Source: a virus (lineage: Duplodnaviria; Caudoviricetes). From it: a stretch of DNA of 64,000 nt. Below the pieces are notes generated by a model that did no database searches, had not been told where the DNA came from, and saw only the letters and a list, made by a program, of their open reading frames with translations. This document shows, in pieces, positions 36,706 to 55,637 of the stretch; the first letter of the stretch is position 1; every line of letters starts with the position of its first letter. The translations under genes were made by a program, and so were the position numbers. The stretch is taken from IMG/VR virus record IMGVR_UViG_3300037067_018293, positions 1 to 64,000 of that record; one strand, written 5' to 3'.

Positions 36706-36748
36706 ACTGCTCTGCGACTATTTGCGGTTGTCTTGCTTGGTTCTCAAT

Positions 36749-38107: not shown

Positions 38108-38382
38108 TAGACTTCCAGTATGATCAGTCAAGTGACGTGCTCTACATTAGTGATGGTGTTCCTCACCCCGCTTTGAGCGAAGAAATAGCCCCAGGCGTAC
38201 TACTTAGATTCGACACTGTTACCAATGATCCAACCGCAATAACAGTCTTGGATTTCCTGTCACATTTCATTCCACAAAATATTATTGCGACACTCTGTGA
38301 TTCTCGTATTCCATCTAATTTGGTCACGTTCCTACGTGACGTTTCACAAGAGCCAAATCTCCTTACTTCCTACACAAAATAA
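38104..38382 (+). CDS. DUF2283-like putative antitoxin
   Basis: FQYDQSSDVLYI...SEEIAPGVLLRFD...AITVLDF. Confidence 0.65.
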   Translation: MIDFQYDQSSDVLYISDGVPHPALSEEIAPGVLLRFDTVTNDPTAITVLDFLSHFIPQNIIATLCDSRIPSNLVTFLRDVSQEPNLLTSYTK

Positions 38383-38429
38383 ATTTTGACAAATATTACA
38401 CAAAAACAATATCATTTTTAACATTCTCG

Positions 38430-39206
38430 TCATCTAAATTTAGAATTAAAATAACTATCAATCGTTTTGACTCGCCGCTGCCAATCCGAAGCTTTCAATC
38501 CACTATATTTTCGTTCGACGGGCTTCAATGCTGTCGCCCCATTTTCATATACCAGTCGGAACGTGCCGGGGAACTCAAATAACGCAAGACTCTCTTTCGT
38601 GCCAGCGTAGAATAGTTTGTCCTCTAATTCAAACAATAGATATCTTTGCTCTCCGGCTGGTACTACATAATCCCCGACCATCGTGAACTTACGTGACGTC
38701 GTGGCGGGTCCTGCAAAACTAAGCAATGGACTTTTGAAAAGAAACATTACCAGCCCTTGATATTCTAGTTGTTTTATTAGTAGCGGTTTTTGAGAGCCAT
38801 TCGCCAGATCAACGATAATGCCTATTCTATAGGTATAGTTCGGCAATGCTTTATGCACGTCGGGTAGGATCGTGACCGCCTCGATTCTGCGGGTGAATAC
38901 CTTTACAGCATTACGCTCCCGCAGTTCTCTTCTTCGTCGCTCATCCTCTTTTACAGATATCCAGCACCGGCGTAGGGCAATCATAACACCAAGAACAGAG
39001 AGAATAAGGGCCGCTACTGATAGATGTTTTCGCCACCTAATACCTACCCGGCGTAAGTATTGTGGACGGTTTGGAACATCTAACAATTCAGGTGATGCTG
39101 GTTTCTTTTCCTCAACAATATCTTCGCTAGTCGGGGAGTTTGATTTCTGCAAATCCAATACAGGAATCTTTCTCTTCGATTGCAGTTCAAAGTAGACGAG
39201 GCTCAT
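38430..39206 (-). CDS. Single-TM hypothetical protein
   Basis: HLSVAALILSVLGVMIAL hydrophobic segment. Confidence 0.6.
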   Translation of the reverse strand: MSLVYFELQSKRKIPVLDLQKSNSPTSEDIVEEKKPASPELLDVPNRPQYLRRVGIRWRKHLSVAALILSVLGVMIALRRCWISVKEDERRRRELRERNAVKVFTRRIEAVTILPDVHKALPNYTYRIGIIVDLANGSQKPLLIKQLEYQGLVMFLFKSPLLSFAGPATTSRKFTMVGDYVVPAGEQRYLLFELEDKLFYAGTKESLALFEFPGTFRLVYENGATALKPVERKYSGLKASDWQRRVKTIDSYFNSKFR

Positions 39207-39237
39207 CGTCGATGTGCATAATTAGGGCGTAGCTGAG

Positions 39238-39471
39238 TCATCCCTTCGGAGGATGCGGATCGTTCCCTGGCGCCACCGTGTCCTTGCTGCGGATTTTTCC
39301 GTCTCGTCCCTTTATCGTAACGTCTCCACCGCCCTGCTGTTTCTCCATTGCCTTGGCGGCCTTGACGGCTTCGGCTTGTGTATCGTGTACACTGGAAGCT
39401 CTGTCTGAGTCGTTGCGTTTGTTTTCCCATGAACCGTCTGGCCGTCTGGATACCGTTCTACCTTTGGACAT
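39238..39471 (-). CDS. DUF2188-family protein (copy 1)
   Basis: DGSWENKR..RAS..HDTQAEAV..A...GG..V.IKGRDGKIR..DT...GNDP.PP.G. Confidence 0.85.
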   Translation of the reverse strand: MSKGRTVSRRPDGSWENKRNDSDRASSVHDTQAEAVKAAKAMEKQQGGGDVTIKGRDGKIRSKDTVAPGNDPHPPKG

Positions 39472-39487
39472 GCAGCACCTCTGCGCC

Positions 39488-39584
39488 GGCCTTGCCCCCA
39501 AAATACCCCCGTGGTGGGGTATTTTGGGGCAGCGGGCAGAATTATGGGGCAAGCGTTGCAACTGGTCGGTATGTCAATACATTC
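39488..39584. repeat. Transposon left end B
   Basis: Same TIR, palindrome and ATGTCAATACATTC motif as end A. Confidence 0.85.
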
Positions 39585-39772
39585 TCGGATTTCCTCACAA
39601 GACAACATCCGTGGTAAAACCTAGGAATAGCGGCCAGGACGTTATTCTTTAGTAGGACGGTAATGTTCTTGAGCGCACACCAATATTCTTAAATTTTCCA
39701 TATTCGGGCAAAACGGCATGGCACCCCGCCTTCATTTTTGCTACTCTGGACAAACCTAAAGAAAATCTGGAG

Positions 39773-40882
39773 ATGGCGAGAATGAATCCTCACGACGCAG
39801 CCCGTGCGGCCAGGAACAAAATTGTCAGCGGCGGGAAATTTGGATTGGTCCGTTCTGGGGCCGCTACTAAGTTGGACCATCCCTACGGAGAGCCCGCCGA
39901 CAAGCTATTCCGGCTGTGGGACGTCCTCGACGATAATAAATCGAGAAGAGATCCTATTCACTGTTCGCCCGATGCACCATTCATCCGATATATCGATTCT
40001 TGGTACGACTATCCGTTTATTGCACAGGCGAGACTTAACACTCCAACCTGGGAACAATATAACAAAAGCTGTCTAGTGCAGGTTGGTGCTTGTTGTGGTT
40101 TCAATTGCTGGCACTGTTACTTGGCACAAGACCACATAAGAGGCGTTTCAAACGACATGGAATTCCTTGAACCGCGCGAAATTGTTGACCGCTACTTGGA
40201 GGAACGCGAACACCAGAGCAACAAACAAGATTCATCGCCAATTGATTTGTTTAGGATTAGTGGTGGCGAACCATTTCTTGTACCTGATTTGATACTAGCG
40301 GTTTTGCAGGAACTGCGCCAACGAGGGCTCGACGACAAGATTTTCCTTTGGGCCGAAACGAACATGGCACCCCTATATAGAGACTTCGTAGGTGATCACA
40401 ACTTTCTGGATGACATACAGTTCGACTTGAAGAGCCTCGATGCGTTCAAAAACTTCGCACTGCATCCTTGCTTTCATGGAATCAGCAAGGACGACTACTT
40501 GAACAACACAGCACTGACCGATTTCACGTTTGATGGATTCCTACAGGCATTTGATCTGCTAGTTCAATCGGGCATTGATATTTATCCGACGTTCGGATCT
40601 AACGTCAACAAGCAATTATCCGTCGAACCCTTCTATAACGCCGTCAAAGCTATCAGCCCCGAAGCACCCAAGCGGTTCGCTCTGATAGAGTACAAGAGTG
40701 GCTACGAAACAGTGCAAGACCGCTTGAAAATGAATTCTGGAACCGGAGCCTTAGAGAAGGCCGCCAAACTGATCAATATCGTCGGCCAGAAGAACCAAGT
40801 CATTGAGACGTGGGATCGACTTCTGAAGGCCGACTTCGGAGCTGGCTATCCAGTGGCACCTAGACACGAGGTGACGTTATGA
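39773..40882 (+). CDS. Radical SAM protein
   Basis: CGFNCWHC (CxxxCxxC), FRISGGEP, WAETN. Confidence 0.85.
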   Translation: MARMNPHDAARAARNKIVSGGKFGLVRSGAATKLDHPYGEPADKLFRLWDVLDDNKSRRDPIHCSPDAPFIRYIDSWYDYPFIAQARLNTPTWEQYNKSCLVQVGACCGFNCWHCYLAQDHIRGVSNDMEFLEPREIVDRYLEEREHQSNKQDSSPIDLFRISGGEPFLVPDLILAVLQELRQRGLDDKIFLWAETNMAPLYRDFVGDHNFLDDIQFDLKSLDAFKNFALHPCFHGISKDDYLNNTALTDFTFDGFLQAFDLLVQSGIDIYPTFGSNVNKQLSVEPFYNAVKAISPEAPKRFALIEYKSGYETVQDRLKMNSGTGALEKAAKLINIVGQKNQVIETWDRLLKADFGAGYPVAPRHEVTL

Positions 40883-42078
40883 CATCAACCAATGAATGCA
40901 AAATTCTTCTCTTTAAGAATTTCTATTATAATAGTTTTGCGAATAAAATTCAAGAGTATATGAGCCTTCCTTTGGGCTTCTATTGCGAATACTCAGCGCC
41001 AGACGAGTACTTTGTTTCCCAAGATATAGACAGTCTGGCAAAGGGTAACCTCAATGGAGCCGAAGTCTGGATCTGCTGTACGCAGTATCCACATAAGGAC
41101 CAATCCATATCAACACAGAATATTGATACCATGCTAGACTCTCGCGTGCGGTTTGTACCGCTGAGAAAAGCAACATTGCTGAGTTCTGTTCACAATAAAG
41201 ACGCGAAAAAGGTTACGTTATCTTTATGTCTAGGAGGTTATCTAAAATGCAATGATTGTACGCAGTTCACTAGGTCTTTATTTCTCAGTGATACTGCGAA
41301 GGCAAACCTTCCCGTGTACTACAAATGCAGTACCGATGCGCAGGATACGCGATTTAGCGTTTGCTACCTTCTTGAAAAGGCGAATCAGCAATATAACGAT
41401 CTCAGTGAAATCGTTGAAGAGAACGATGCCTCAGAAAACTCGTTTGAGGCCGCAGTAAAGATGCTGAGAGATAACAAGCTTAGTACTCCTGAATCTATTG
41501 CATTAGATTATTACATATTCTACAAGATGAACTTCAAGGACACTGATGGTAAATCACTTGTCTTCAATACAAAAACAAAAAATATGGTCGTATCAGCGAG
41601 TAAATCCTTAGTCCTAGACATGCATATTGATGCAACTTCCAGTGAATACTCACACGTGGCGTCAACAAACACGCTAGACGTTCTCGATGATATGAAACCA
41701 CTTGTGGAAATCGAAATAGATTCTCGCTCCAGTGGGCATCTAATAATAAAAACGGCGACCATCGTAGTAACGTCTGATGCAGCAAAAGCAAAACTGGTAG
41801 TAAGATCAAAGCGACGTGATATGAAAAGTTACTCCAAATACTTGCCGGATGATTTTAGGTGCTTTGGTAACATGGAGTTGAATCTCGCAGTTCACAAAAG
41901 GGTACGGTGGGCCTCGGTTCTTAGTTCTGGTCTCGGGCGCCTGGCTGTATGGTCTGCCATTTCTATTGCATTATTCAAAGAGAGCTTAGATATGCATATG
42001 AATTGGCTACCTTGTACAATTGTTGCCGTAGGCATTATTGACGTTCTGTTTTCTTCATATCGAGAACTACGTTCTTGA
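40879..42078 (+). CDS. Hypothetical protein with C-terminal two-TM tail
   Basis: ATGA-coupled to the radical SAM gene; hydrophobic LAVWSAISIALF and WLPCTIVAVGIIDVLF. Confidence 0.65.
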   Translation: MTSTNECKILLFKNFYYNSFANKIQEYMSLPLGFYCEYSAPDEYFVSQDIDSLAKGNLNGAEVWICCTQYPHKDQSISTQNIDTMLDSRVRFVPLRKATLLSSVHNKDAKKVTLSLCLGGYLKCNDCTQFTRSLFLSDTAKANLPVYYKCSTDAQDTRFSVCYLLEKANQQYNDLSEIVEENDASENSFEAAVKMLRDNKLSTPESIALDYYIFYKMNFKDTDGKSLVFNTKTKNMVVSASKSLVLDMHIDATSSEYSHVASTNTLDVLDDMKPLVEIEIDSRSSGHLIIKTATIVVTSDAAKAKLVVRSKRRDMKSYSKYLPDDFRCFGNMELNLAVHKRVRWASVLSSGLGRLAVWSAISIALFKESLDMHMNWLPCTIVAVGIIDVLFSSYRELRS

Positions 42079-42117
42079 GAAGTAATTACAGGCCATGCCT
42101 CAGTGTTTGGTTTCAGA

Positions 42118-43332
42118 TCAGGCTGAGCAAACACACGCGGGCGATGCTTTGGGTTTGTCCTTGCTTCGGCAAGGCAAACACCAAGATTGGTCATAAGCCT
42201 CGCCATCCACCACCCTTTCGCCAAAGTCTTCCATGAAATAAAATACATGATATCCTGCCATCGTCGAACAATGAGGACAGGATTTAATTGCTCGACCGTC
42301 TATGTTTCGATGCAGAGATCGGTCCAGCCTCTCGCCGCAAAACGAGCAACTTGCTCCGATAGAGTCTCCACAATTCTCCATTTCACTCCTCCTTGGTGTG
42401 CTCTTTCTTTTGAAGGCTGCTGCGTGACCGTAGGCAATGGCCTGAGCCAGCAAAGCGTCGTTCATTCCTGGAAGAGATCTGGCTCGTCGATACTCCTCTT
42501 GTGCATCAACAGCAGAGAACAGAGTGTTGTCAGTGCAGACGCACGCGCGTATCCCACGTCGAAGCCATTTCGGCAGAGGATGGGTCGATAAGTCTGGTAT
42601 AGCCCCGACGTGCCAATTAGAGGTGATGTTGGCCTCTAGGGTTACGCCACGGGCAAGGACGAGATTTACGATGTCGGGATCATTCAGTACTGTGGTGCCA
42701 TGACCAATACGGTCTGCATGGAGTAGCTTGATGGCCATAAATATTTCGCCAGGAGGACGCCCCTCGCTGGCGTGAACGGTGCGCCCAAGACCTGTATCCC
42801 GTGCCATCGTAAAAGGTTCTACATAGTCCTGCAGGCGATAGACGTGCCCCTTGGCCGGTCCACCAGCTAGGTCAATGCCTACTACCCCAGGTCGTGACTT
42901 GGCCACTAATACGAGGTCCGTTAACACTGTAGGTGGCTCACCGTACAGCCCGCATAGCACCAGCCCAGCCCTGCCGTCTATGCCTTCAATCGCCGCATCG
43001 ACAATTTCGGCTGGCGTCGCGCCTCGGTGAAGCTGGGGAGCGAAACGGATCTCCAGCGTGGTGACGCCCTCGGCAGCGGCATCTTCGCAGATATCTGCCG
43101 CCACACGCTTCACAGCATCTGGTTGCTGCAGTACAGACAGGGTGAGAGTGAAGCAGGCGAGAGCATCGGCCAGGCCCATGCCTGGAAGAAATACAAGGTT
43201 GGCTGGCACTGCGATGCCCAGGTGCGCGGCCAGATCGTCGAGCGTGGTGCGGCGAAGTGACCCGTCCAGATGCCGATGCAGATCGGCAAGTCCGATCGGC
43301 GAGTTGGCTTCAATCGGCACAATCTGATCCAC
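42118..43332 (-). CDS. add: Adenosine deaminase with C-terminal Cys-rich extension
   Basis: DLHRHLDGS, EIRFAPQ, TVHASE, RIGHG, CTDN. Confidence 0.9.
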   Translation of the reverse strand: MDQIVPIEANSPIGLADLHRHLDGSLRRTTLDDLAAHLGIAVPANLVFLPGMGLADALACFTLTLSVLQQPDAVKRVAADICEDAAAEGVTTLEIRFAPQLHRGATPAEIVDAAIEGIDGRAGLVLCGLYGEPPTVLTDLVLVAKSRPGVVGIDLAGGPAKGHVYRLQDYVEPFTMARDTGLGRTVHASEGRPPGEIFMAIKLLHADRIGHGTTVLNDPDIVNLVLARGVTLEANITSNWHVGAIPDLSTHPLPKWLRRGIRACVCTDNTLFSAVDAQEEYRRARSLPGMNDALLAQAIAYGHAAAFKRKSTPRRSEMENCGDSIGASCSFCGERLDRSLHRNIDGRAIKSCPHCSTMAGYHVFYFMEDFGERVVDGEAYDQSWCLPCRSKDKPKASPACVCSA

Positions 43333-43360
43333 TGCTCATTATCCCTGATATCCTTGATAA

Positions 43361-43594
43361 CTACCCCTTTGGAGGATGGGGATCGTTCCCTGGTGCGACC
43401 GTGTCCTTGCTGCGGATTTTTCCGTCTCGTCCCTTTATCGTAACCTCCCCGCCACCCTGCTGTTTCTCCATCGCCTTCGCGGCTTTGATCGCCTCGGCCT
43501 GGGTGTCATGAACGCTTGACGCCTTGTTGGCATCGTTCCGCTTGTTTTGCCAGGAGCCGTCCGGCCGTCTGGATACCGTTCTACCTTTGGACAT
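43361..43594 (-). CDS. DUF2188-family protein (copy 2)
   Basis: Near-identical to 39238-39471. Confidence 0.85.
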   Translation of the reverse strand: MSKGRTVSRRPDGSWQNKRNDANKASSVHDTQAEAIKAAKAMEKQQGGGEVTIKGRDGKIRSKDTVAPGNDPHPPKG

Positions 43595-43836
43595 GCATCA
43601 CCTCTGCGCCACTGAAACGTGACGAGTTACCCGGTACGGTACAGCCGTTCAGTAATGGTGTCCACTTTATTTTTTCGCCAGATCTGGCTCCGGGCATTGT
43701 GGCGGTATCTTAGGGTGATTTTGTACTTCGCGGGAACGGAACGGTCTGAACTGCCCCTCGCCCGTGATAAACTGGCTCATGCGATGCGGACAGAATTCAT
43801 GCAACGAGCGTGTCACTGGGCGCGCAACGCAACCCT

Positions 43837-44730
43837 TCACTGCGTCGGTAGCTTTAGCCAAGCTGCGAATTCGGATCGTAGTTTCGATAGTTCTTTATTA
43901 TTTTTGCCTATGCCATTTGCCTTGCGCTCAATATCTTTGACACAAGCAGGACTGTATGGATCCTTCTTAAAGCACGGTGATGAGTCTTTCATTTTTGTCC
44001 CAACAAAATAAAAGAAGAAAAGAACCGACAGTTCATTATCAGAACCTTTCCATTTGGCTCTGCCCTCAAACCAGAGATCAATGACCTTTACGGATAATGA
44101 ATAAACTTGCTGTAAAATCTCATCACCAAAAGAGCAGCCACCAAACGCTGGGGTCATCAATTGAACGCCTAGACCCATGCAGAACAAAGTGACGTCATCG
44201 CCTCGTTTGAGTTCTTTTGCCTTTGCTACGCTGTCCTTCCCAAGATACGCCTGTACCTCCCGCAGGAAGTCGTGACCCTTCAGTGACACGTATACATTGC
44301 CCTTCATGTCTCGCTTAATCGCGGTGATGGGACCCGAAAGTCTCACAGCCTTGCTTTTGTACTTCTCATCCGCCGATACTTCATTGTCGCGGTATTCTTT
44401 CGAGACGTCACGGCTCGTGGCCTCCACCTGGATATTCATTATGGTATTCCACTTGATTGCGGTCTCGTTACAATCAACTGTGTAGCTTTTTAGATCCTCC
44501 CAAATTACTGCCTTCAGAATTTTCAAACCCTTTTCGCTAATGTTGGGCTTATGTACGATAGGAGTGACGATGGGAGCACTCTGTCTGACTGCGGGCTTGT
44601 GCTTCAGCTTGCTTTGGGTAGGTTTAGTTTCATCGCATGATATTGGCATCGATAAAACCAAGGCAATCAAATATGTGACCAGACGCCCAATGACCGAATG
44701 AATCGTCATGGATCGTTGTACTCTTGGTTT
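43837..44730 (-). CDS. Secreted/lipoprotein with tRNA_anti-like OB fold
   Basis: Hydrophobic N-terminus ending ..ISC; YRDNEVSADEKYKSK..LSG.I..I...VYVSL. Start uncertain. Confidence 0.65.
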   Translation of the reverse strand, partial: KPRVQRSMTIHSVIGRLVTYLIALVLSMPISCDETKPTQSKLKHKPAVRQSAPIVTPIVHKPNISEKGLKILKAVIWEDLKSYTVDCNETAIKWNTIMNIQVEATSRDVSKEYRDNEVSADEKYKSKAVRLSGPITAIKRDMKGNVYVSLKGHDFLREVQAYLGKDSVAKAKELKRGDDVTLFCMGLGVQLMTPAFGGCSFGDEILQQVYSLSVKVIDLWFEGRAKWKGSDNELSVLFFFYFVGTKMKDSSPCFKKDPYSPACVKDIERKANGIGKNNKELSKLRSEFAAWLKLPTQ

Positions 44731-44784
44731 CATCGTCCTATCAAGCCTCACTATATCCCAGGTTCCCTTGGCCTCTCTTGAACC

Positions 44785-47589
44785 TTACTCCTGAGACCAC
44801 AGCGACGGTCCGATGGATTCCCCAGATGTATATTTCTCGTAGAGGGAAAACAAGTGTTCCAGCCGATCTCTGTCGCTGTTGAATTTCCTTTTGCGGTAGC
44901 AGCGGTCTACCGCGCGGTCTAGCTTGCGATGGGCCTTCTGTAAAGCCGTGGGCATCGTAAGAGGGTCGTAGAGGTCTGCCAGACAAGCATCAGGGAAAAA
45001 CGATTCTCTGCAGTCTAAAACCGCCTGTGCAGCGTTCTCAACATCCTGTTTCATTTCATCCGGAACATCTTTGGGCCACGGGAAATTGTTGTATACGATC
45101 TCGGCCGAGTATCTGAACCTACTTTCCAATCTGCCACAAACACTCGATACCCAAGACATGTGCATCAGCGAAGACATTATTCCAAATACAAATACAGACG
45201 CATTAGGCACCATCATATTTGCGTCGCCACAGATAACTTCAGATTCCATGAATCCCAAGGGAATATATATGCGGTTTTCTCCCGTGTGCCTTGGAACCAA
45301 AAGGTACTTGCTTTCAGGCTGACGTATTTCCCCGAATAAATAGGGAGTTGCAGCTAGTTTTTGAGTACCCTTCCGTTTACTGTTCTGTCGCACTTCGCGA
45401 CACCGATCAATACATTGTTTGATTGGCAATATATCGCGAAAGGACGATGGGTTTTCCTTATACAACCAGATGCACCATCGTTTCTTATTATACAAGAATT
45501 CATCAACTTGAACGAATGCTCTTATGAAACGCGCTGCCCGAGGATCCGCATCAAGCATTTCTTTTCTGGTAGCGGAATCAAGCAGTAATGCCCCCCCATC
45601 ATTGGGCATGGAGCCAAAGACCATTTCAGGAACATTTTCTAAGAGGGGCGTTGAGCGTTTACTAATAAGAACATTTGACGCACCAACTAGATATGGATTT
45701 ATGTTCTCTGCAGGAATGGGATGTGCTTCTGGATTAGCTCCATCGTATTCGTATATTGTCTTATTATTTGATTCCAAATTACTAAAACCAATAATCACTA
45801 CATGAACGTGAGCCTTTCCTTTTGCATCGCTTTCCCACGGGAAAGTGCGATGTGCGAACGTAATATGGACATTGTATTTATTGAATAGGCGCTTCCACAG
45901 TACACCGGGTTGTTCACCTTGCGTTATGGAACTGGTAGAAACAAATGCTACCTTCGTCTTAGTCCCATATATGTACTTTGCGGCTGTCTCGTACCATGCA
46001 CATACATAATCTAGTACGCCAGCGCCATCAACGCCTGAGAACACTCTAGTCATATCCTCGGTTTGTTGAGTTGTACGTGCCTTCTTTCCGACAAACGGTG
46101 GGTTACTCAGGATGTAGGAGCATTCTTCTACAGGCAATAAATCATTCCAATCGATCTCCAGGGCATTGTCGCAGATGATCCGGGGGCTGCTCTTGAGGGG
46201 CAGGCGTTCAAAGCTCTGGCCGAATTTTTCAGACGCATCCTGGTTCATCTGGTGGTCCATCAACCACATCGCGACTTCCGCGATCTTGGTAGGCCACTCA
46301 AGAATTTCGATCCCATAGAACTGATCAATGTCGACCTGGACGGCCGTCCTTAGCTCAAGGACTCGCTGGCTCGTTCGTTTGTCACTTTGGCGCTCGAATA
46401 AAACGTCGTGCTCAAGGGAGCGCAGCTCCCGGTACGCGACGATGAGGAAGTTGCCGCAACCACACGCCGGGTCAAGGAACCGAAGGGAGCGGAGATAATT
46501 TTGAAACGACTCTAGTGCCTTAAGCCGACGCGAGGAACGATCTTCCCTGATGGTTTCAAACTTGGCGCGCAGCCGCCGTAGAAATAGGCTATCGATCACC
46601 CGCATGATGTCGCGCTCACTGGTGTAGTGAGCCCCTAACTGCCTTCGTTCCCCCTTCTCCATGACGCCTTGGAAAAGGCTACCGAAGACCGCAGGAGAGA
46701 TCCTCGCCCAGTGGAAATGCGCCGCTTCGATCAAAGCGGTACGCATCGCGCGAGTAAAAGAAGCAAAACCAATCCTGTCGGCAAAAAGCTGGCCGTTCAC
46801 GTACGGTAGGGCGGCCAGTTCATCGGACAGGTTTTTCTGGCGCCGAGTGGACGGCGTGTTCAGGACCTCGAAGAACTCGTTGAGCTTGGCGCCAAGGTCA
46901 GCGCCGTCTTTTCTGGTGCTACTTTCTACAAACGCGACGAAAGCGTTAGGTTCAAAAATGCCCGTATCCTCGGCGAAGAGACAAAACAGGATCCTGACGA
47001 GGAGTTTCTCTAGATCCTGACCTTCAAACCCACCGTCGCGCAACTGGTCGTGCAGTTCGCACATAAGCTGGTAGGCTTTTTGATTTGCAGGATCCTCGGG
47101 CTTGGGACGAACGACCCGCTCACCACGAATAAATCCAAACTCCCGGACGTGACGGTGAAGGTCCTGAAGATCGAACTCTGAAACTGGGAGATTCCTATCT
47201 TCCTGTTCTTCACGTTCGAGGTCGTAAATAGCAAAGCGCGCGAAGTCTGAAACCACGATGTAGCGCGGGCTCTCGTCATCCCGACCTTCTCGGGCGAGAT
47301 CTTGGATATATTGGAAAGCTTGTGACGCCGCAGCGTCCAGCCGTTTTCCTTTGCTTTTATGCTCTACTAACAGGACACCACGCCAGAACAGATCGATCCG
47401 ATTATACTTGCCGCGAATATTCTTGATCGGCTCCTCGAAGCTCGCGACTACTCTGCGTTCTTTTCCAAATATTTTGAAAAATGCGTTCCAGAAACTTTGG
47501 CTCTCGCCACTTTCATTTTCTACCCCCTCCCAGCTCTTGGAGAATTCGATGGCCTTGGTCTTGATTTCTTTCCAGCTCAGTTGCGGCAT
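44785..47589 (-). CDS. MmeI/YeeA-like type IIL restriction-modification enzyme
   Basis: LSWKEIK...ESQSFWNAFF, RIDLF...VEHKS nuclease, LDPACGCGNFL, ILSNPPFVG, TRD with CGRLESRFRYS. Confidence 0.9.
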   Translation of the reverse strand: MPQLSWKEIKTKAIEFSKSWEGVENESGESQSFWNAFFKIFGKERRVVASFEEPIKNIRGKYNRIDLFWRGVLLVEHKSKGKRLDAAASQAFQYIQDLAREGRDDESPRYIVVSDFARFAIYDLEREEQEDRNLPVSEFDLQDLHRHVREFGFIRGERVVRPKPEDPANQKAYQLMCELHDQLRDGGFEGQDLEKLLVRILFCLFAEDTGIFEPNAFVAFVESSTRKDGADLGAKLNEFFEVLNTPSTRRQKNLSDELAALPYVNGQLFADRIGFASFTRAMRTALIEAAHFHWARISPAVFGSLFQGVMEKGERRQLGAHYTSERDIMRVIDSLFLRRLRAKFETIREDRSSRRLKALESFQNYLRSLRFLDPACGCGNFLIVAYRELRSLEHDVLFERQSDKRTSQRVLELRTAVQVDIDQFYGIEILEWPTKIAEVAMWLMDHQMNQDASEKFGQSFERLPLKSSPRIICDNALEIDWNDLLPVEECSYILSNPPFVGKKARTTQQTEDMTRVFSGVDGAGVLDYVCAWYETAAKYIYGTKTKVAFVSTSSITQGEQPGVLWKRLFNKYNVHITFAHRTFPWESDAKGKAHVHVVIIGFSNLESNNKTIYEYDGANPEAHPIPAENINPYLVGASNVLISKRSTPLLENVPEMVFGSMPNDGGALLLDSATRKEMLDADPRAARFIRAFVQVDEFLYNKKRWCIWLYKENPSSFRDILPIKQCIDRCREVRQNSKRKGTQKLAATPYLFGEIRQPESKYLLVPRHTGENRIYIPLGFMESEVICGDANMMVPNASVFVFGIMSSLMHMSWVSSVCGRLESRFRYSAEIVYNNFPWPKDVPDEMKQDVENAAQAVLDCRESFFPDACLADLYDPLTMPTALQKAHRKLDRAVDRCYRKRKFNSDRDRLEHLFSLYEKYTSGESIGPSLWSQE

Positions 47590-47913
47590 GGTCCTGAGAC
47601 GCCGAAGGACGGCTGCTCCTTGACCCGTAGGTCTACCATGCTGCTCGTGATCCTCGCAACGCTTCCGCAGGGCTAACATTCGTCACCTCGGGTTGTTGGT
47701 CTCTGGATGTGTTTTACCGACGATCCTGACCAACACCTATTTTGTTATCGGCGGTTCCGAGGACTGGTTGCGCTCCTTTCTGCACGGGCTGCCAATGCCC
47801 TTGCCCCAAGGTGCACTCTGGGGTCTTTTCCTTGTCGCGAGCATCTGCGGAGCAGTCCTGACGGTAAAACCTTACTGTGGTACCATGGGCAGCCTCACGA
47901 GAGGAGCGTGCCC

Positions 47914-49359
47914 ATGCCGGAGCCCAGCATGCTGTACTATGGTGACAACCTCGACGTAATGCGGCGTCATGTGCGTGATGAGTCGGTTGACCTGGTTTAC
48001 CTAGATCCACCGTTCAACAGCAAAGCGACGTACAACGTGCTGTTTGAGGAGCAGGACGGCACTGGAGCTACGGCACAGATTAAGGCATTTGGGGACTCAT
48101 GGCATTGGGATATGGCGGCGGCGGAACTTTTCCAGGAGACCGTTGAGGCCGGAGGAAAGACGGCAGACGCGCTCTTAGCTTTTCAAAAGCTCCTTGGGCA
48201 TAACGACATGCTGGCGTACTTGACCATGATGGCGCCACGCTTAGTAGAGTGTCGTCGCGTCTTGAAACCAACTGGATCCATATATCTTCACTGCGACCCG
48301 ACCGCAAGCCACTACCTGAAAATCTTGATGGACGCAATTTTCGGTGCCAGGCATTACCTTAACGAAATCGTATGGCATTATTCACTCGGTGGTGTGGGGA
48401 AGCGTTTTTATGGACGCAAACACGATGTTCTTCTTTTCTACTCGAAGGGCAAGAAGTACAAGTTCTACCCTGAGCGTGTCATGGTCCAGCGCACAGAGGA
48501 AGTGTTGCGACGGCTTGGTACTGGTAAGGCGAGCGCCACTCGTGCCACGAGTGAGGAAAAGCTCCCGGTAGATGTTTGGGAAATCCAAGCACTCAACGCC
48601 ATGGCGAAGGAGCGGCTCGGCTACCCAACACAGAAACCAGAAGCCCTTCTGGAGAAGGTCGTGTTGGCCAGTAGTGATGAAGGCGATGTCGTGATGGATC
48701 CGTTTTGCGGGTGCGGCACCACCGTGGTGGTGGCAGAGAAACTCAAGCGTCGCTGGATCGGTATTGACGTCACGTTCCTGGCCGTCAACCTTATGAAGAC
48801 TCGGTTGAAGGACAAGTTTTCCGGTCGGGTAGATTATCGCGTTATCGGTGAGCCTACTACGCTAGAGGATGCCCATGCTCTGGCACGGCAGGACAAATAC
48901 CAGTTTCAATGGTGGGCACTCGGACTCCTCGGGGCTCGCCCCTCTGCTGGAGACGAGCGCAAAGGAGCGGACGCTGGAATTGACGGCAAACTGTTCTTCC
49001 ACGATGAGGGCAAGGGAGGAAAGACCAAGAGTATCGTTTTCTCGGTCAAGGGCGGGCAGCGTGTCAAAGTCAGTGAGGTGCGGGATCTTCGGGGGGTGGT
49101 GGAACGAGAAGATGCCCAAATCGGTGTGCTGGTATCTATCGCATCGCCAACGTCAGACATGAGGAAGGAAGCGGCTTCAGCAGGTTTTTACAAAACACCG
49201 TTTGGAAAATTCCCTCGAATACAACTTCTCACCATAGAGGAAATTCTCTCCGGCAAAGGTGTTCAATACCCAGGACGAGGGCAAAGCAATTCTACATTCC
49301 GAAAAGCCAGGCGGGAGGCTTCGCTCTGGGATACCTTGGATTGGACTGAAAAGGATTAG
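47914..49359 (+). CDS. N4/N6 DNA methyltransferase fused to a C-terminal Mrr-like restriction endonuclease domain
   Basis: LYYGDNL, YLDPPFNS, YPTQKPEALL, DPFCGCGTT; C-terminal GADAGIDG...SVKGG. GAGGAG RBS before ATG 47914. Confidence 0.9.
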   Translation: MPEPSMLYYGDNLDVMRRHVRDESVDLVYLDPPFNSKATYNVLFEEQDGTGATAQIKAFGDSWHWDMAAAELFQETVEAGGKTADALLAFQKLLGHNDMLAYLTMMAPRLVECRRVLKPTGSIYLHCDPTASHYLKILMDAIFGARHYLNEIVWHYSLGGVGKRFYGRKHDVLLFYSKGKKYKFYPERVMVQRTEEVLRRLGTGKASATRATSEEKLPVDVWEIQALNAMAKERLGYPTQKPEALLEKVVLASSDEGDVVMDPFCGCGTTVVVAEKLKRRWIGIDVTFLAVNLMKTRLKDKFSGRVDYRVIGEPTTLEDAHALARQDKYQFQWWALGLLGARPSAGDERKGADAGIDGKLFFHDEGKGGKTKSIVFSVKGGQRVKVSEVRDLRGVVEREDAQIGVLVSIASPTSDMRKEAASAGFYKTPFGKFPRIQLLTIEEILSGKGVQYPGRGQSNSTFRKARREASLWDTLDWTEKD

Positions 49360-49406
49360 GTAGTTTGGTTTTTGTGTCTGCCGGCGAGAAGTAATGTACG
49401 AAAAAA

Positions 49407-52172
49407 TTACTTCCCAACTTTCATTACGTTGCCGGAACCCGTTATCCAATAAACATCCGTTGCGTCGACAGCAATATTCGTAGGGCTCGTTTGACCAGTA
49501 ACGATATTTAATAGAGATGATCCGGTCTTGGTGGACGTACTGATCGTTCCTCCCGTGGAGGTACTCCAAAATACCTGCGTAGCATCAACCGTGATTCCGT
49601 AAGGAGTATTTTGACCCGAAACGATATTCGTGATGGCACCGCCTCCTATCGGAATTTTCGAGACAGTACCACCGTTGTAGTTTGCGAAAAACAAATTCGT
49701 TGAATCTGCAGCCAAGCTCCACGGCAAATTAGCGGAGTTTGCCAGATCACCGGTTGTGCCGCCCGAAGTTGAAACTCGACGTATATCCGGACCAGCGATG
49801 AAATAGACGTAGGAACCAGAAACCGAAATATCCTGTAGCCCATTTTGCCCTGAAGACAATATCGTGATGGTGCCACCAGTCTTGCTGATCTTATTGACCG
49901 TATCGGTACTCCTGTCCAACCAATATAAATAGAGCCCGTCTTGCGTAATTGCTGTTGGACCACCCAGACCTTCCGCTACAGGCGTAGGGGAGCCGCCGCC
50001 AACCGGAACCTTCACAATAGATCCAGTGCCGACGGTTGGAAAATTATTATTGGTCCAATATACGTAAGAAGTGTCGAGCGCGAGGCCATAGGGACTTTGG
50101 CCTGTAGCCAAATCCGTTACACTGCCCCCGCCTTTGGGTACTTTCCTTACGCTACCAGCTCCGGCGCTGAGAAAATACACGCTGGTAGAATCTACCGCGA
50201 TTCGCCACGGGGAATTTTGTCCTGTCGCGAGAGTCATGAGACATTTACCTCTTGTATCGCACGTGCCGTTTGCACCGCAGTCACCGCAGTCAGCCCCTAT
50301 GTGCGGTGATGGTCCACACTGCACCGTCAGGCAGTCATCGATGCACTGTCCTGACGTGTTGCACCAGTCCGTGGCTCCGAGACATAACCCACAATTGAAA
50401 TGCCCGTTCGGTGAAGAGCCGCATTCGAGACCAGCGCAGTCATCAACACACTGCCCTGTCGAGGTGCACCAGTCTGTTGCACCAGAGCACAGGCCACACG
50501 AAACGCCCAGGTGAGGTGAGCTGCCACAAACTCGTCCTAAGCAGTCATCAACGCAGTTTCCTGAAGCATCACACCAGTCCGTGGTGTTGGGACAGGACCC
50601 ACAATAAAATCCTCCGATGGGAGATGAACCACATTCTCGTCCTAAACAGTCGTCTATACACTGATTAGAAGAAGAACAGTATTCTGTTGTGCCTAAGCAA
50701 TCTCCGCAATCAAAGCCCATCACGGGAGAAGATCCACACTCAATACCCGCGCAATCGTTGACGCAAAGATGAGCTGAATTACACCACTCCGTTGATCCCG
50801 AACATCCTCCACAATCAAAACCAAGAGGAGATGTACCGCACCTTCCCAAACAATCATCAACGCATTGATTATTGAGATCACAGTATTCGGTCAGACCAAC
50901 GCACGTACCACAATTTGCTCCAATGGTAGGTGACGAACCGCATTCCAGATCCTCGCAGTCGTCGGCACACACAAATCCATCGGTACAATAAGCTCCGGCT
51001 CCGAGACATGTCCCACACAATAGCCCCGCTAAATAACCTTCACCACACAAGCGTCCCTGACATGGGCTCGCAACAAGTGTTGCATTACAGTCAGAAACGT
51101 CACCCGTAAGTGTCGCGGTAGCGTAGGCTACTTGTGCGCTGTCTTGGCGACCATCGACATTGACGTTAATCGTTAGGGTCGGGTATCCAAGCTCAACGGG
51201 TGTACAGATACCAATTACATAGTTTGAACGAGAGATATTTTCTACACTACCGGCGACGGATCCGAACGCCGTCACCAACGCTGCCGAGTTATCCGCTATA
51301 ACAAAATACTCTTCCTTTGACGCAAGTTCTCTGAGTTTTTCCTCATCGTAAGCACCACGAATCCCAATCGAGAAGATGCTGACTCCGGCGGTTTCGACAG
51401 CACTGGTCTTTGCATTAAGCGCCTGGGTCCGCATTAACTCTTCATCCCCAGCTTCATGCGTTCCATCCGTCAGGATGACGACAGTCCGTTCAACCATATC
51501 GTAATCTATGGCGGCTGCCTTGACCGTATCGATGGCATATATGTACGCGCCGTACAGATTGGTCGTTCCGAGGCTCTGAGACGTGCGGAGATTGTCTAGC
51601 GTAGCAAATAATACTTGCGCATCATCGGTAAAGCCTAGAATCGTTTGAATCGCATCTGTCCTTCCAAATATTACGATGGCGACACGATGCCGTTGTGCAT
51701 CAGGTGCTTCGACAACTAACTTTTGCACGAATGCTTCGGCACCACTGATCATATTATCTACCGCACCGCCGTTCACAATCGAGTCCGACATGTCTAATGC
51801 TAAAACAGAATAGAATTCAAAATTCTCGGGATTGGTGGGAGCTGATGCACTGCCGCCTTCCCCACCAGATCCAAATGGTTCTCCTTTTTCGTCATTGATA
51901 ACTGTAACGTCTGCCGCAGTTAGTTGACGAACTGGGTAACCATCACAATCAAGCACACGAAATATGACACGGACCGCCGCAGGTGAATACACACTATGTG
52001 TGACGCGATCGATATTTATGCAATCAGCAGATGAGTTATTATTAAGATTGTTCTCGTTGGTGTTTTCGTTTGTGTCCACATCACTGGACGGACCACAACA
52101 CGTAAATAAAAATAATAAACCAGCAAAGAAATAATGTGGAGGGCATAGAAATTGGTTTTGTGCTTTGTTCAT
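49407..52172 (-). CDS. Lipoprotein with vWA domain, Cys-rich repeats and beta-propeller repeats
   Basis: Lipobox-like LFTCC; vWA LALDMSDS...ILTDG; ~39-aa C..G..CG.SP..G..CG.C repeats; xDxxxVYW repeats. Confidence 0.85.
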   Translation of the reverse strand: MNKAQNQFLCPPHYFFAGLLFLFTCCGPSSDVDTNENTNENNLNNNSSADCINIDRVTHSVYSPAAVRVIFRVLDCDGYPVRQLTAADVTVINDEKGEPFGSGGEGGSASAPTNPENFEFYSVLALDMSDSIVNGGAVDNMISGAEAFVQKLVVEAPDAQRHRVAIVIFGRTDAIQTILGFTDDAQVLFATLDNLRTSQSLGTTNLYGAYIYAIDTVKAAAIDYDMVERTVVILTDGTHEAGDEELMRTQALNAKTSAVETAGVSIFSIGIRGAYDEEKLRELASKEEYFVIADNSAALVTAFGSVAGSVENISRSNYVIGICTPVELGYPTLTINVNVDGRQDSAQVAYATATLTGDVSDCNATLVASPCQGRLCGEGYLAGLLCGTCLGAGAYCTDGFVCADDCEDLECGSSPTIGANCGTCVGLTEYCDLNNQCVDDCLGRCGTSPLGFDCGGCSGSTEWCNSAHLCVNDCAGIECGSSPVMGFDCGDCLGTTEYCSSSNQCIDDCLGRECGSSPIGGFYCGSCPNTTDWCDASGNCVDDCLGRVCGSSPHLGVSCGLCSGATDWCTSTGQCVDDCAGLECGSSPNGHFNCGLCLGATDWCNTSGQCIDDCLTVQCGPSPHIGADCGDCGANGTCDTRGKCLMTLATGQNSPWRIAVDSTSVYFLSAGAGSVRKVPKGGGSVTDLATGQSPYGLALDTSYVYWTNNNFPTVGTGSIVKVPVGGGSPTPVAEGLGGPTAITQDGLYLYWLDRSTDTVNKISKTGGTITILSSGQNGLQDISVSGSYVYFIAGPDIRRVSTSGGTTGDLANSANLPWSLAADSTNLFFANYNGGTVSKIPIGGGAITNIVSGQNTPYGITVDATQVFWSTSTGGTISTSTKTGSSLLNIVTGQTSPTNIAVDATDVYWITGSGNVMKVGK
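50230..51070 (-). repeat. Cys-rich ~117-bp coding tandem repeats
   Basis: About seven DDC.G..CG.SP...CG.C.G.T.WC units in the translation. Confidence 0.75.
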
Positions 52173-52387
52173 ATCACACCTGCTGATTGCCGATTTAGCA
52201 ACAGGCTGATAACAGCACAAAAATCACAAATTCTCAAGCGATTAAAAATGGTGGGCAAATCACCCCTAACCTAATAAATATTAACCTATTTACGCTACTT
52301 GTGGCAACGCGGTCCCAGCGTTTGCCTCGCCGTCCAGAGACCCGCCCAGGATCCCAGCATCTACTCGTGGACAAAGACTCAGGTGGT

Positions 52388-52738
52388 TTACTCAACCAGC
52401 CGCAGCGTAGGGCACGATGCGTCCTTCACCACCACGGGTGCAGCGTCCTCGGCGGCAGTGGGATCGTCCTCCAGATCGGGCAAGTAGCCGCAGTGCGGAC
52501 AAGCGCCAGCACGGTAGCGACCACCCAGCAGGTCATCGATGGGCGTGTCGGCCAGGCGCGCGACGCGAAACGCCAACGTCGGGGTAACGGCGCGACCGCG
52601 AGCGTTCGCGATCTTTTCCAGGGAGTCCGGGCCGTAGTGCAGCGCCGCCGCCAACGGGATCCATCCTCCAGTTTCCCGTCGAAGGTAATGGAGCGTGGCG
52701 CGAACTCGCTGTTGCTCTTCTTTCGTGAGGTCCGACAT
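52388..52738 (-). CDS. HTH-type transcriptional regulator with C-terminal CPHC
   Basis: MSDLTKEEQ...LAAALHYGPDSLEKIAN...TPTLAFRVARLA..IDDLL; GAGGT RBS. Confidence 0.6.
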   Translation of the reverse strand: MSDLTKEEQQRVRATLHYLRRETGGWIPLAAALHYGPDSLEKIANARGRAVTPTLAFRVARLADTPIDDLLGGRYRAGACPHCGYLPDLEDDPTAAEDAAPVVVKDASCPTLRLVE

Positions 52739-52740
52739 CG

Positions 52741-54021
52741 TTACCTCGAAAACTCGACCGACGCGGGCACCGGAGCATCGGCGTCGATCCCAAACTCCGT
52801 GATGGCGTGGACGATGCACGCGAGGTTGTGGCACAGCACCTTGCACAGCACTTCGTTGACCTGAGCGGTCTGGGATTTTGATCGGACGGCGCTGCCGAAC
52901 TTGGACTTGATCATCCACATGGTGGTCTCGACGTTGCTGCGGCGATGGTAGTGGGAAAGGAAATCCTCGCTCCGCAGAGAGAAATGCGCCCACATGCGAC
53001 GCCAGTGTGGCGAACTGCTGATCGCCAGGCTGTTGGACTTGAACGGGATGAACGGCACGGCCCCCACGGCCTCGATGGCCGCGAGATTCTTCTTGGAGAG
53101 GTACGCCTTGTCGGCCGACACTTCCTTGACGTTGAATTTCCGCACCGTCTTGTTGAGTAGCTCGGGCAGCACGGGGCAATCGCCTTCAGCAGATACCTTG
53201 GCGCTCGTCACGACGTTCGTGGCGGTGCCGATCATGACGTGCAGCTTGACCCACGCGTGCTTGGCCTTGAGCTTCCCGTGTTTCTGATCGAACCAGCGAT
53301 CATAAGTCACGGTGGAGAACCCGGTTGAATCCTGAGCGAACTGTCCCGCGACGTTCTCGACTTCGGCCAGGGGCGCGGCGCTCTCCTCAATCAGCCTCGT
53401 CAGGATCTTGGTGGTGTCATCATGCTCCAGAGTCCGGAAAATGGAGTTGTAGTGCGGCGCCTTGTCCAGCAGGCCCCGCTCAGCACAGTCACGAATGTCC
53501 GTGGAGGCCCGGCGCCCCGACATCGTGGTGTAGATCTTCATGACGGCCGAGAAGACCTTGTCGCGGAGCCGTAGGGGTGGACGTCCGGCGCCGGGCTTGC
53601 GCTGGGGCTCCTCAATGCCCTCACACAGCGACTTCAGCAGTAGGGCCACACGGGCCTTCTCGGTCGTCTGGGCGGCGTTGTAGGCGGGCCAGTTCTGTGG
53701 GTACGCCTTGCGCTTGGTGGGCTCCTTGGGCGCCTCCGTGGGGTTCACGGTCCCCTCCCACGCGAGCCAGAACCAGACCGCCTCCTGGTGCTTGCAGCGC
53801 AGGCACCGTAGCTCGTAGTCGGGGCACGTACAGGTCTCGTCCACCAGGTCCACGACGTACGTGGAGGCCACACCACCGGGCGTCTGGGACGGCACCACGT
53901 ACTTGGCCCCAACCTTCCGGATGCCCCCCTGTGCCGCGATCTGGCGTCCCCGCTCCTCTCGGGTGGTCGTGAGGGGCTGGAACTCGGTGACCATGGTGTC
54001 GGACTGAAGTGCATGTTCCAT
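52741..54021 (-). CDS. IS5-family (IS903-like) DDE transposase with N-terminal SWIM-type zinc finger
   Basis: CTCPD...CKH (SWIM); QDSTGF, KHG...WVKLH, SADKAY, YHRRSNVETTM..IK.KFG. Confidence 0.88.
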   Translation of the reverse strand: MEHALQSDTMVTEFQPLTTTREERGRQIAAQGGIRKVGAKYVVPSQTPGGVASTYVVDLVDETCTCPDYELRCLRCKHQEAVWFWLAWEGTVNPTEAPKEPTKRKAYPQNWPAYNAAQTTEKARVALLLKSLCEGIEEPQRKPGAGRPPLRLRDKVFSAVMKIYTTMSGRRASTDIRDCAERGLLDKAPHYNSIFRTLEHDDTTKILTRLIEESAAPLAEVENVAGQFAQDSTGFSTVTYDRWFDQKHGKLKAKHAWVKLHVMIGTATNVVTSAKVSAEGDCPVLPELLNKTVRKFNVKEVSADKAYLSKKNLAAIEAVGAVPFIPFKSNSLAISSSPHWRRMWAHFSLRSEDFLSHYHRRSNVETTMWMIKSKFGSAVRSKSQTAQVNEVLCKVLCHNLACIVHAITEFGIDADAPVPASVEFSR

Positions 54022-54042
54022 GTTGGTGCTCTCTTGATTCTG

Positions 54043-54110
54043 TTGTACCCCATTAGGCCCACACTGTCAAGTCGTAATGTGGTTGACTTGTGGTTTTGTT
54101 GGGATACACT
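54043..54110. promoter_or_regulatory. Divergent overlapping promoters (tnp / RHH gene) with CCACA-N14-TGTGG inverted repeat
   Basis: Minus strand TTGACA-N17-TACAAC; plus strand TTGACT-N16-TACACT; inverted repeat at 54059-54082. Confidence 0.6.
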
Positions 54111-54116
54111 AGCGGC

Positions 54117-54302
54117 ATGACGAACCAAGAGAAGAAGCGGCGAAAGCCAGAAAACATTAGGAAAACTGAGTACCTGCGGGTGCGGGTCTCGGAGGAACAG
54201 AAGGACGTGATGCAGAGGGCTGCCAACCAGGCCGGGATCACCTTGTCGGCCTGGGCGGTGGAACGCTTACTCCGCACCGCTCGGGAGGAAGTGCCGAATT
54301 AG
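54117..54302 (+). CDS. Ribbon-helix-helix (DUF1778/MobC-like) DNA-binding protein
   Basis: YLRVRVSEEQKDVMQRAANQAGITLSAW. Confidence 0.75.
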   Translation: MTNQEKKRRKPENIRKTEYLRVRVSEEQKDVMQRAANQAGITLSAWAVERLLRTAREEVPN

Positions 54303-54417
54303 AAAGCGATTCTCGTAACTTGGCGTATACATGAGAAAACCATTGACTTTCGGCCGTGTCGTGCTAGGTTGATGATGTTTCATCGAGGTGATGTAGACAG
54401 GAAAAAAGCTAAAGAAT

Positions 54418-54501
54418 TGGGCGCGGCGGGACTTGAACCCGCATTGGTGCTACCCAGCCGGATTGCAGATCCGGTGCGTTTACCAGTTTCGCCACACGCC
54501 C
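54418..54501 (-). tRNA. tRNA with Leu-type long-variable-arm body and atypical anticodon loop (UCUGCAA; UGC in standard register)
   Basis: Acceptor GGGCGTG/CGCGCCC+A73, D-arm GCGAAACTGGTAAACGC, stem CCGGA/TCCGG, variable hairpin, T-arm GCGGG-TTCAAGT-CCCGC; no encoded CCA. Confidence 0.8.
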
Positions 54502-54505
54502 GATA

Positions 54506-54576
54506 TGGTGGAGATGTCGGGAGTCGAACCCGAAGGTCACGGATTTAAAGGCCAGACCTGCGACCCTGCCATCCCC
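54506..54576 (-). tRNA. Degenerate tRNA-like gene with encoded CCA
   Basis: Acceptor GGGGATG/CATCTCC-A-CCA and T-arm TCGGG-TTCGACT-CCCGA are clear; D and anticodon arms are weak (loop CTTTAAA). Confidence 0.55.
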
Positions 54577-54634
54577 GATTTTCTAGAGACCCCCGTTGTT
54601 TGCAGCAGCGGGGGTTTCGCTTGTTAAGTGTTGA

Positions 54635-54991
54635 TTATTCGTTCTCCTCCCTGATTGTCTCCCACAATTTGGCGCCAACTTTCTGGACGAGGCCACGCTT
54701 TGCTGCACGAGATAACCATGACGACACGTTTAGTGGATCAACATCATAGCCTTGCTTCTCAAGTTGCTCCTGCAAACCATTTCTCGTGAAAGGAGACGAC
54801 GCCGCGTGCACTAATGTCGTGGCAGCTTCAGTCCAAGGCTGTTTCTGGTCGGCATCTTGCTTAGGTGCTGGTGGTGTCACTGGAATCTTCGCGACCAAAA
54901 TCTTGTAGGTCTCTCGAAGGTGATTCAGTTCACCTTCTCGTGTAAGGATCTCTTCAGCCAGCATTTTGATCAAGTCGTGTGGATTGGACAT
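54635..54991 (-). CDS. Small coiled-coil plus winged-HTH-like protein
   Basis: MSNPHDLIKMLAEE...VSSWLSRAAKRGLVQKVG..LW. Confidence 0.6.
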   Translation of the reverse strand: MSNPHDLIKMLAEEILTREGELNHLRETYKILVAKIPVTPPAPKQDADQKQPWTEAATTLVHAASSPFTRNGLQEQLEKQGYDVDPLNVSSWLSRAAKRGLVQKVGAKLWETIREENE

Positions 54992-55133
54992 TGGCAACCT
55001 CATTACCGTAGTTCTAACGGTAAGGTGGACCAATGGCGTCGTCAAGTTCGAAAGTTGTCTCGTGCAAATATTTCTTTGCACGCGACATGTCGCTGCGTTG
55101 TCAGGTATCCCAATAAATATCGTGCATAACCAG

Positions 55134-55240
55134 GAATGTATTGACATTACAAGACGTTGACTGCAGTCATGTTTCACGTCTAATCTATTTTGAGGCAGGC
55201 GACAGAATTTTGGGGCAGGAGGACATTTTGGGGCAAGGCC
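55134..55240. repeat. Transposon right end C
   Basis: GAATGTATTGACAT ... TATTTTGAGGCAG..GAATTTTGGGGCA..ATTTTGGGGCAAGGCC. Confidence 0.85.
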
Positions 55241-55341
55241 CCCTGTGCCGCGATCTGGCGTCCCCGCTCCTCTCGGGTGGTCGTGAGGGGCTGGAACTCG
55301 GTGACCACGGTGTCGGACGGCAGGGAATTCGTGTTGGCCAT
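55241..55341 (-). pseudogene. Truncated 5' fragment (~33 codons) of a second SWIM-DDE transposase gene
   Basis: Near-identical to ~53927-54021 and its promoter; cut exactly at right end C. Confidence 0.85.
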
Positions 55342-55430
55342 GTTGGTGCTCTCTTGATTCTGTTGTACCCCAATAGGCCCACATTGTCAAGCAAAATGTG
55401 GTTGACAGCGTAGTTTTTTCGGGGTACATT

Positions 55431-55637
55431 ATGTCCATGGATACGAAACCAATCCAGCGTCGTAAGTCTGCGGAAAAAAGAAAAGAAAAGTTTCTGCGGG
55501 TACGGGTGTCAGATCAACAGAAGGAACTGATCGACACCGCCGCCAATTTGGCGGGCATTACGGTTTCGGCTTGGGTGTTGGAGCGACTACTTCAGATCGC
55601 GAGGAAGGAAGTGGCGGCGAGGACTCGCCCGCCCTAG
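55431..55637 (+). CDS. Ribbon-helix-helix protein, paralog of 54117-54302
   Basis: FLRVRVSDQQKELIDTAANLAGITVSAW; same divergent promoter layout (CCACAT...ATGTGG at 55379-55401). Confidence 0.75.
   Translation: MSMDTKPIQRRKSAEKRKEKFLRVRVSDQQKELIDTAANLAGITVSAWVLERLLQIARKEVAARTRPP

Follow-up and report, generated by a model that had tools for sequence, protein, structure and literature searches.

The locus described here raises the question of how one transposon came to lie within a sister element of its own family without a target duplication at its ends. It was found in the window, by which we mean the whole 64,000-nucleotide stretch that was analyzed, which makes up the initial 64 kb of a virus record of 78,961 bp (IMGVR_UViG_3300037067_018293; G+C content 53%; completeness 33% by CheckV). 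Comparison of repeats within the window showed that this phage contig carries two sister IS903-like unit transposons, one nested in the other in the same orientation. An initial annotation, made from the sequence alone, had proposed such an arrangement. The observation of a nested sister element with a missing duplication was confirmed, and nested insertion together with loss of the core of the outer element is a solid conclusion.

Two nested elements and their junctions

Four transposon ends, designated A to D, were recovered by repeat finding and self-BLAST of the window. They delimit an outer element of 22,866 bp (35785-58650) and an inner element of 15,753 bp (39488-55240), both in the same orientation. 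The left termini, GGCCTTGCCCCCAAAAT, begin at 35785 (A) and 39488 (B) and are 95% alike over a stretch of 66 nt; those on the right finish at 55240 (C) and 58650 (D) and are 88% alike over 56 nt, in agreement with the earlier proposal that B and C are copies of A and D. The terminus GGCYTTGCCCC is present on all four ends, each of which also contains three spaced T(T/A)TTG(G/A)GGCA boxes. The ends, their flanks, and the genes next to the junctions are listed below, with the strand where one applies.

35776-35784: left copy of the outer 9-bp target duplication CTCCAGTCC, identical to 58651-58659
35785-35887, plus strand: outer left end (A), with terminus GGCCTTGCCCC, three boxes, a 13-nt hairpin, and the GAATGTATTGACAT motif; 98% identical to the left end of a Polyangia sister element (see below)
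39238-39471, minus strand: outer DUF2188 gene, intact (77 aa), ribosome-binding site kept; PF09954, E 2e-20; 92% protein identity to the inner copy
39479-39487: 9-mer CTCTGCGCC adjoining end B, native DUF2188 leader, identical to 43602-43610
39488-39584, plus strand: inner left end (B)
43361-43594, minus strand: inner DUF2188 gene; PF09954, E 3e-21
52388-52738, minus strand: HTH partner gene, downstream of the transposase; kept in four of the six small family members
52741-54021, minus strand: inner transposase, 426 aa, SWIM-like finger plus DDE_Tnp_1, with intact DDE and Y-2-R-3-E-6-K motifs
54090-54302, plus strand: inner RHH gene, divergent from the transposase
55134-55240, plus strand: inner right end (C), with the GAATGTATTGACAT motif, three boxes, and terminus GGGGCAAGGCC
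55241-55341, minus strand: outer transposase stub, which begins with the ATG at 55341 and comprises 33 codons plus 2 nt; CCCTGTGCC, which adjoins C, is identical to 53927-53935
55431-55637, plus strand: outer RHH gene; promoter region 96% identical to the inner one
58596-58650, plus strand: outer right end (D)
58651-58659: right copy of the outer target duplication CTCCAGTCC, identical to 35776-35784

The outer ends A and D are bounded by the same perfect 9-mer, CTCCAGTCC, indicating that the 22,866-bp outer unit moved in one piece. The inner element has unlike flanks, CTCTGCGCC before B and CCCTGTGCC after C. Both are native sequence of the outer element; the initial annotation had recognized them as DUF2188 upstream and transposase sequence, respectively, and the alignments it suggested bear this out. 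On the left, 39242-39487 aligns with 43365-43610 at 86% identity, and the homology ends exactly at B, so that B adjoins native DUF2188 leader sequence. On the right, 55239-55616 matches 53925-54296 at 76%, the initial 67 nt past C being identical; CCCTGTGCC falls in codon 34 of the transposase stub, and C cuts this second transposase gene after about 33 codons, as had been noted.

Because both inner tips adjoin native outer sequence, the outer element must have lost the interval from its DUF2188 leader to codon 34 of its transposase. The loss comprises at least the HTH gene and 393 transposase codons, or approximately 1.5 kb; the matching interval of the inner element measures 10.3 kb. Both junctions are exact transposon tips, which argues that transposase made either these junctions or the sequence that they replaced. 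An exact joint between a tip and formerly distant DNA, with no duplication, is a feature of an adjacent deletion, and it is present at the inner element.

The stub promoter is intact and 96% identical to the inner one. The stub frame continues into the inner right end (55185-55240, minus strand) and would give a peptide of approximately 53 aa if still expressed.

At the opposite side of the nest, ends A and B are each found close to a leftward start codon (at 35767-35769 and 39469-39471, respectively), 15-16 nt upstream of it. An ACCTC ribosome-binding site directly precedes both left ends, and the flanks share ACCTC-N4-CC (35767-35784; 39469-39487). This placement could reflect either selection keeping the downstream gene usable or a site preference. 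A sigma-70-like outward promoter was not detected in the left ends.

In evaluating the assembly, we considered four sequencing runs that cover the nest, the probable source run (groundwater) and three landfill runs from other studies. Coverage was examined over 35600-55599, which places ends A, B, and C inside the examined region and end D outside it. The outer left arm and the inner element were covered in all four runs, in which no alternative joints or alleles were reported over this region, and the nest is at least 99% identical across the four samples. In the probable source run, the depth is 15.9-17.4 for the phage flank, outer arms, and inner element alike, and this equality argues for a single molecule. 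Junction C is crossed by 28 nt in Logan contigs of two runs from different studies, just short of the 31 nt set as the bridging rule. No listed Logan contig crosses junction B, although uncovered parts are by themselves not evidence, and Logan contigs end at repeats, the expected behavior for 31-mers.

The uncrossed junction B would fit an assembly artefact in which the repeats of two separate elements were mis-joined, as would the presence in the source run of other members sharing a B-type left end (loose end at 39659). Such an artefact is nevertheless highly improbable, because a normal read exceeds every shared stretch in length (the ends share 56-75 bp and the stub 67 nt), and the DUF2188 copies are only 86% alike. 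The even depth, the 28-nt reading of junction C in two runs, and the coverage by all four runs of every part examined, including A, B, and C, also speak against it. The source-run contig concerned has the B-type left end as far as 39659 but departs from it beyond that point, which indicates another family member with other cargo in that sample. In run X3, the tail of the HTH gene occurs as a variant that differs by five substitutions and lacks 3 nt (52417-52446).

An IS903-like transposase family and its target duplications

The inner transposase matches DDE_Tnp_1 (PF01609, E 1.7e-14) and bears a SWIM-like finger in addition. Its best NCBIfam model is that of the IS5 family (NF033579), at 114 bits and thus below the 140-bit cut-off, and its nearest named plasmid relatives are IS903B and ISPko1, with 24-28% identity. 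A BLASTP alignment with IS903B (E 3e-14, 24% identity) spans nearly the whole of that protein (residues 9-308) and keeps the DDE and Y-2-R-3-E-6-K motifs in register. One IS903B end, in NZ_CP065459.1, begins GGCTTTGTTGAATAAATC; since it opens with GGCTTTGTTG, GGCTTTG is common to IS903B and end D, in keeping with the GGCYTTGCCCC that opens the termini here. These similarities suggest that the transposase is a distant IS903-group (IS5 family) relative with an added SWIM finger.

These elements would work in the manner of IS903. Several features separate the two. Compared with IS903B, the transposase has approximately 95 extra N-terminal residues, which bear the SWIM-like finger, and it is accompanied by conserved RHH and HTH partner genes. 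Each end contains three spaced boxes, whereas IS903 has a simple 18-bp repeat. Finally, the elements measure 3.5-23 kb and carry cargo, in contrast to approximately 1 kb for IS903, and are not simple insertion sequences (ISs). A description of these IS903-like cargo transposons was not found in the literature searched.

The family is large. Metagenome relatives of the transposase numbered 7,621 at E <=0.001 among 8,000 candidates scored, many with 65-92% identity, and close relatives occur on Logan contigs (for example, P0001 at 92%). Genome matches were mostly to Myxococcota metagenome-assembled genomes (MAGs), such as those of Kofleriaceae and Polyangia; a comparison with 401 Myxococcota genomes gave seven matches, the new ones at 43-56% identity, and IMG/VR contributed 15 further family loci. 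In the small members (3.5-6.7 kb), the core consists of RHH, transposase, and HTH genes, and DUF2188 is absent. The initial annotation had described the order DUF2188, transposase (minus strand), RHH (plus strand) as common to both layers. Both layers do possess DUF2188, which is, however, shared cargo and lies outside the core of RHH, transposase, and HTH.

IS903 generates 9-bp target duplications, and 9-bp duplications are also found here. Both ends could be placed for 18 other members, namely the Polyangia sister, seven members from genome loci, and ten from virus loci. A 9-bp duplication is present in every one of the 18, perfect in 16 and matching at 8/9 positions in two. The outer element has a perfect duplication and the inner element alone has unlike flanks, which makes its missing duplication a real exception. 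No target-site consensus is shared among twenty duplications compared. The two inner flanks, CTCTGCGCC and CCCTGTGCC, are alike at 7/9 positions, or 9/12 when three more bases are included; random pairs of 9-mers drawn from the element attain 7/9 in 0.15% of trials (p about 0.0015). Candidate explanations for this likeness are a target preference, a microhomology deletion, or chance. The outer duplication is C-rich too (5/9).

An 86-bp element consisting only of two family ends, with an 8/9 duplication, was observed at G002:C1:37095-37180 (L092, 17096-17181). The virus genome concerned, of 131 kb, also contains a complete member of 5.4 kb (27120-32489, duplication CGACGAGGT), at a distance of 4.6 kb from the 86-bp element.

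Two members at 8/9 illustrate that duplications decay, and the 7/9 flanks of the inner element could be read as a true duplication further along this course. The outer element would then already have been internally deleted and non-autonomous, and the inner one would have inserted at the deletion joint, with two substitutions to follow. We give this history very little credence. The two flanks match two different native contexts, each at 9/9 positions (43602-43610 and 53927-53935, respectively), so the insertion would have had to fall in exact register with the older joint, followed by two changes that each recreated paralogous sequence, and the nest has hardly varied across the four samples.

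Possible routes to the missing duplication

An insertion with a subsequent adjacent deletion would account for the junctions in two steps. The inner element would have entered the outer one by ordinary insertion, making a 9-bp duplication. A second transposase-made joint would then have linked one inner tip to another outer site, that is, an end-adjacent deletion by intramolecular transposition. This deletion would have removed the outer core, comprising the HTH gene, the transposase from codon 34, and whatever reached to the DUF2188 leader. Either flank could be what survives of the original duplication, the other then being the new target. The initial annotation had specified insertion into the transposase gene followed by a deletion from the left end. 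Its nested sister and the loss of the outer core stand; its order of events is one of two that fit, because the mirror history, insertion upstream of DUF2188 and deletion from the right end, yields the same product. Taking both orders together, we consider the chance that insertion and adjacent deletion produced the nest to be about even.

Adjacent deletions are common for IS903, require both ends, and are tied to the replicative pathway (PMC11708052). Given an IS903-like transposase, this behavior favors intramolecular transposition, which on our analysis would be the most plausible mechanism. The resemblance to the adjacent deletions described at IS150, IS10, IS26, and IS903 (PMC11708052) is close: a tip adjoins new DNA with no duplication, neighboring DNA is lost, and the element stays. 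The present case differs from those in two respects. What was lost here is a sister element's core, giving one four-ended composite, and the case is seen in its end state alone.

The possibility that the deletion arose independently of transposase was also weighed. After insertion with a 9-bp duplication, a microhomology deletion could have run to a look-alike 9-mer, with the distal 9-mer kept. Among the explanations considered, only this one predicts the likeness of the flanks, both over nine and over twelve positions. The deletion would, however, have to be in exact register with a duplication copy, a requirement estimated to cost more than the likeness explains. An estimated 15 or so sites in 10 kb reach at least 7/9, among tens of thousands of equally good pairs, and the longest perfect runs are only 3 nt. 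We therefore regard a microhomology deletion as improbable.

A more serious competitor, although still rather unlikely, involves two inner copies in the same orientation, one upstream of DUF2188 and one in the transposase, between which homologous recombination removed the interval together with one copy. In a two-molecule version of this exchange, the outer arms would derive from two different elements and be chimeric. Recombination of this kind leads precisely to the end state that is seen, a repeat of 15.8 kb is an excellent substrate for it, and recombination between copies is a frequent cause of missing duplications (PMC11708052). It requires, on the other hand, two independent insertions of a low-copy element in one small target. 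The depth of the inner element equals that of the phage, with no sign of more copies, and the likeness of the flanks is left unexplained.

The duplication may also never have been made, if the inner element arrived by a one-step insertion with deletion, either into a break or through uncoupled strand transfer of its ends. A possible precedent is an IS5 copy (assigned there to the IS903 sub-group) centered in a 62-kb deletion without a duplication after one overnight culture (PMC11708052), but the authors state that this case can also be read as two quick steps. There is no established mechanism for such an event, and both tips are base-exact here, as in normal strand transfer. We judge a one-step origin about as improbable as the microhomology deletion.

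Insertion followed by adjacent deletion thus has to be held against several points that weigh on the other side. The two-step history is drawn from the end state, ancestral and intermediate alleles having not been found; junction B is the one not crossed by a listed Logan contig; and the likeness of the flanks fits a second joint only if there is a target preference, of which the other duplications, lacking a consensus, give no indication. In addition, the replicative or intramolecular activity of the transposase is presumed from its distant kinship to IS903 (114 bits versus 140).

Nesting of one transposon in another is also familiar from Tn21/Tn402-type nests on resistance plasmids. There, the outer transposon is crippled and moved in trans, the inner duplication is usually kept, and the layers belong to different families. 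The nest described here differs in that both layers are of one family and the inner duplication is absent.

The initial annotation had suggested looking for related contigs with the outer element un-nested. Neither an un-nested outer allele nor an intermediate was found in the four runs, IMG/VR, JGI metagenomes, 802 Myxococcota genomes, or GenBank phages, in which the sampling of close relatives is thin. The outer cargo proteins had no match in IMG/VR, GenBank phages yielded nothing, and an empty phage site, sought via the neighboring SNF2 helicase, was not found. The end pattern retrieved from IMG/VR only a 197-kb phage with a double right end, and the right-end pattern retrieved from JGI metagenomes a single contig, a copy of that same double right end. 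A search of 401 Polyangia genomes with the outer right arm gave one close MAG only, which matched at the ends.

The nearest approach to an un-nested outer element was a sister in a Polyangia MAG (G003). Its left end, on a short contig, is 98% identical to A over 100 nt, and its right end, on a different contig, is 94% identical to D; both are flanked by the duplication TGTTTTCGG. An RHH gene and a transposase lie beside the right end, and this transposase continues beyond codon 34 to at least codon 129, the contig ending at about codon 130. That a sister with outer-type ends reads past codon 34 supports the stub as a true transposase start. The G003 sister shows the expected uncut state of a sister element; its different cargo sets it apart from the ancestral allele. 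A further terminus match in G003, on contig C663, was attributed to chance and dropped, being a solitary 16-mer that lacks boxes.

In the 197-kb virus record, two right-type ends in the same orientation lie 211 bp apart (G001:C1:123903-125401; L082, L090, and L091; also L096). The tail of the HTH gene has left a relic of 129 nt in the same record (92% to 52383-52514), oriented the opposite way; the record has no transposase and no left end. In runs X1 and X3, a loose end at 52514 has the sequence that follows this relic.

Probable consequences of nesting and the cargo of the composite

The nest forms a four-ended composite of 22,866 bp. The inner element probably moves on its own, since its transposase gene is intact, and the outer ends, 88-95% like the inner ones, are presumably movable by the inner transposase. 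The scar itself is textbook transposon behavior, and both nesting and the loss of a duplication after an adjacent deletion are well known. The value of the locus is as a well-defined example in an IS903-like cargo transposon family that is widespread in metagenomes, large phage contigs, and Myxococcota genomes. It illustrates that a pair of these elements can fuse within a virus to give a single, larger mobile unit. Should the family transposase make adjacent deletions, this would offer a route for cargo accretion and for the reshaping of phage genomes.

More speculatively, nesting with loss of the outer core may be a way in which the family grows, the arms of a crippled sister becoming cargo and spare ends. 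We hold this to be unlikely as a general rule; if true, it would lead from 4-6-kb members to the 16-23-kb gene carriers of jumbo phages and Myxococcota. Traces of such growth could include the tandem right ends with the HTH relic, the 86-bp two-end relic, and the left ends near start codons.

The remaining features of the nest are its cargo genes.

35888-39237: outer left-arm cargo, with a Y1 transposase and a weak DUF2283 match
36805-37257, plus strand: IS200-like Y1 transposase, outer left arm (PF01797, E 1e-42)
38104-38382, plus strand: DUF2283 match, weak and sub-cutoff, outer left arm
39773-43332: inner left cargo, with a radical-SAM protein (weak viperin-like match), a 399-aa unknown protein, and an adenosine deaminase
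43837-52220: inner central cargo, including an OB-fold protein
44785-47679, minus strand: MmeI-type IIG restriction-methylase, inner central cargo
47707-49359, plus strand: methylase-Mrr fusion, inner central cargo
49407-52220, minus strand: VWA protein, inner central cargo
54418-54501, minus strand: tRNA with anticodon UGC, inner right arm (ARAGORN)
55648-58507: outer right-arm cargo, including a 464-aa unknown protein
57115-57681, plus strand: DUF4231/SLATT-like protein, outer right arm
57941-58507, minus strand: SLATT_4 match, weak and sub-cutoff, outer right arm

This cargo includes defense-type genes, namely the MmeI-type restriction-methylase and the methylase-Mrr fusion, together with weak SLATT-like (sub-cutoff), viperin-like, and deaminase matches. 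The IS200-like Y1 transposase of the outer left arm may constitute a third mobile layer. In the inner right arm, the tRNA(UGC) is followed by a second tRNA-like stretch at about 54505-54590.

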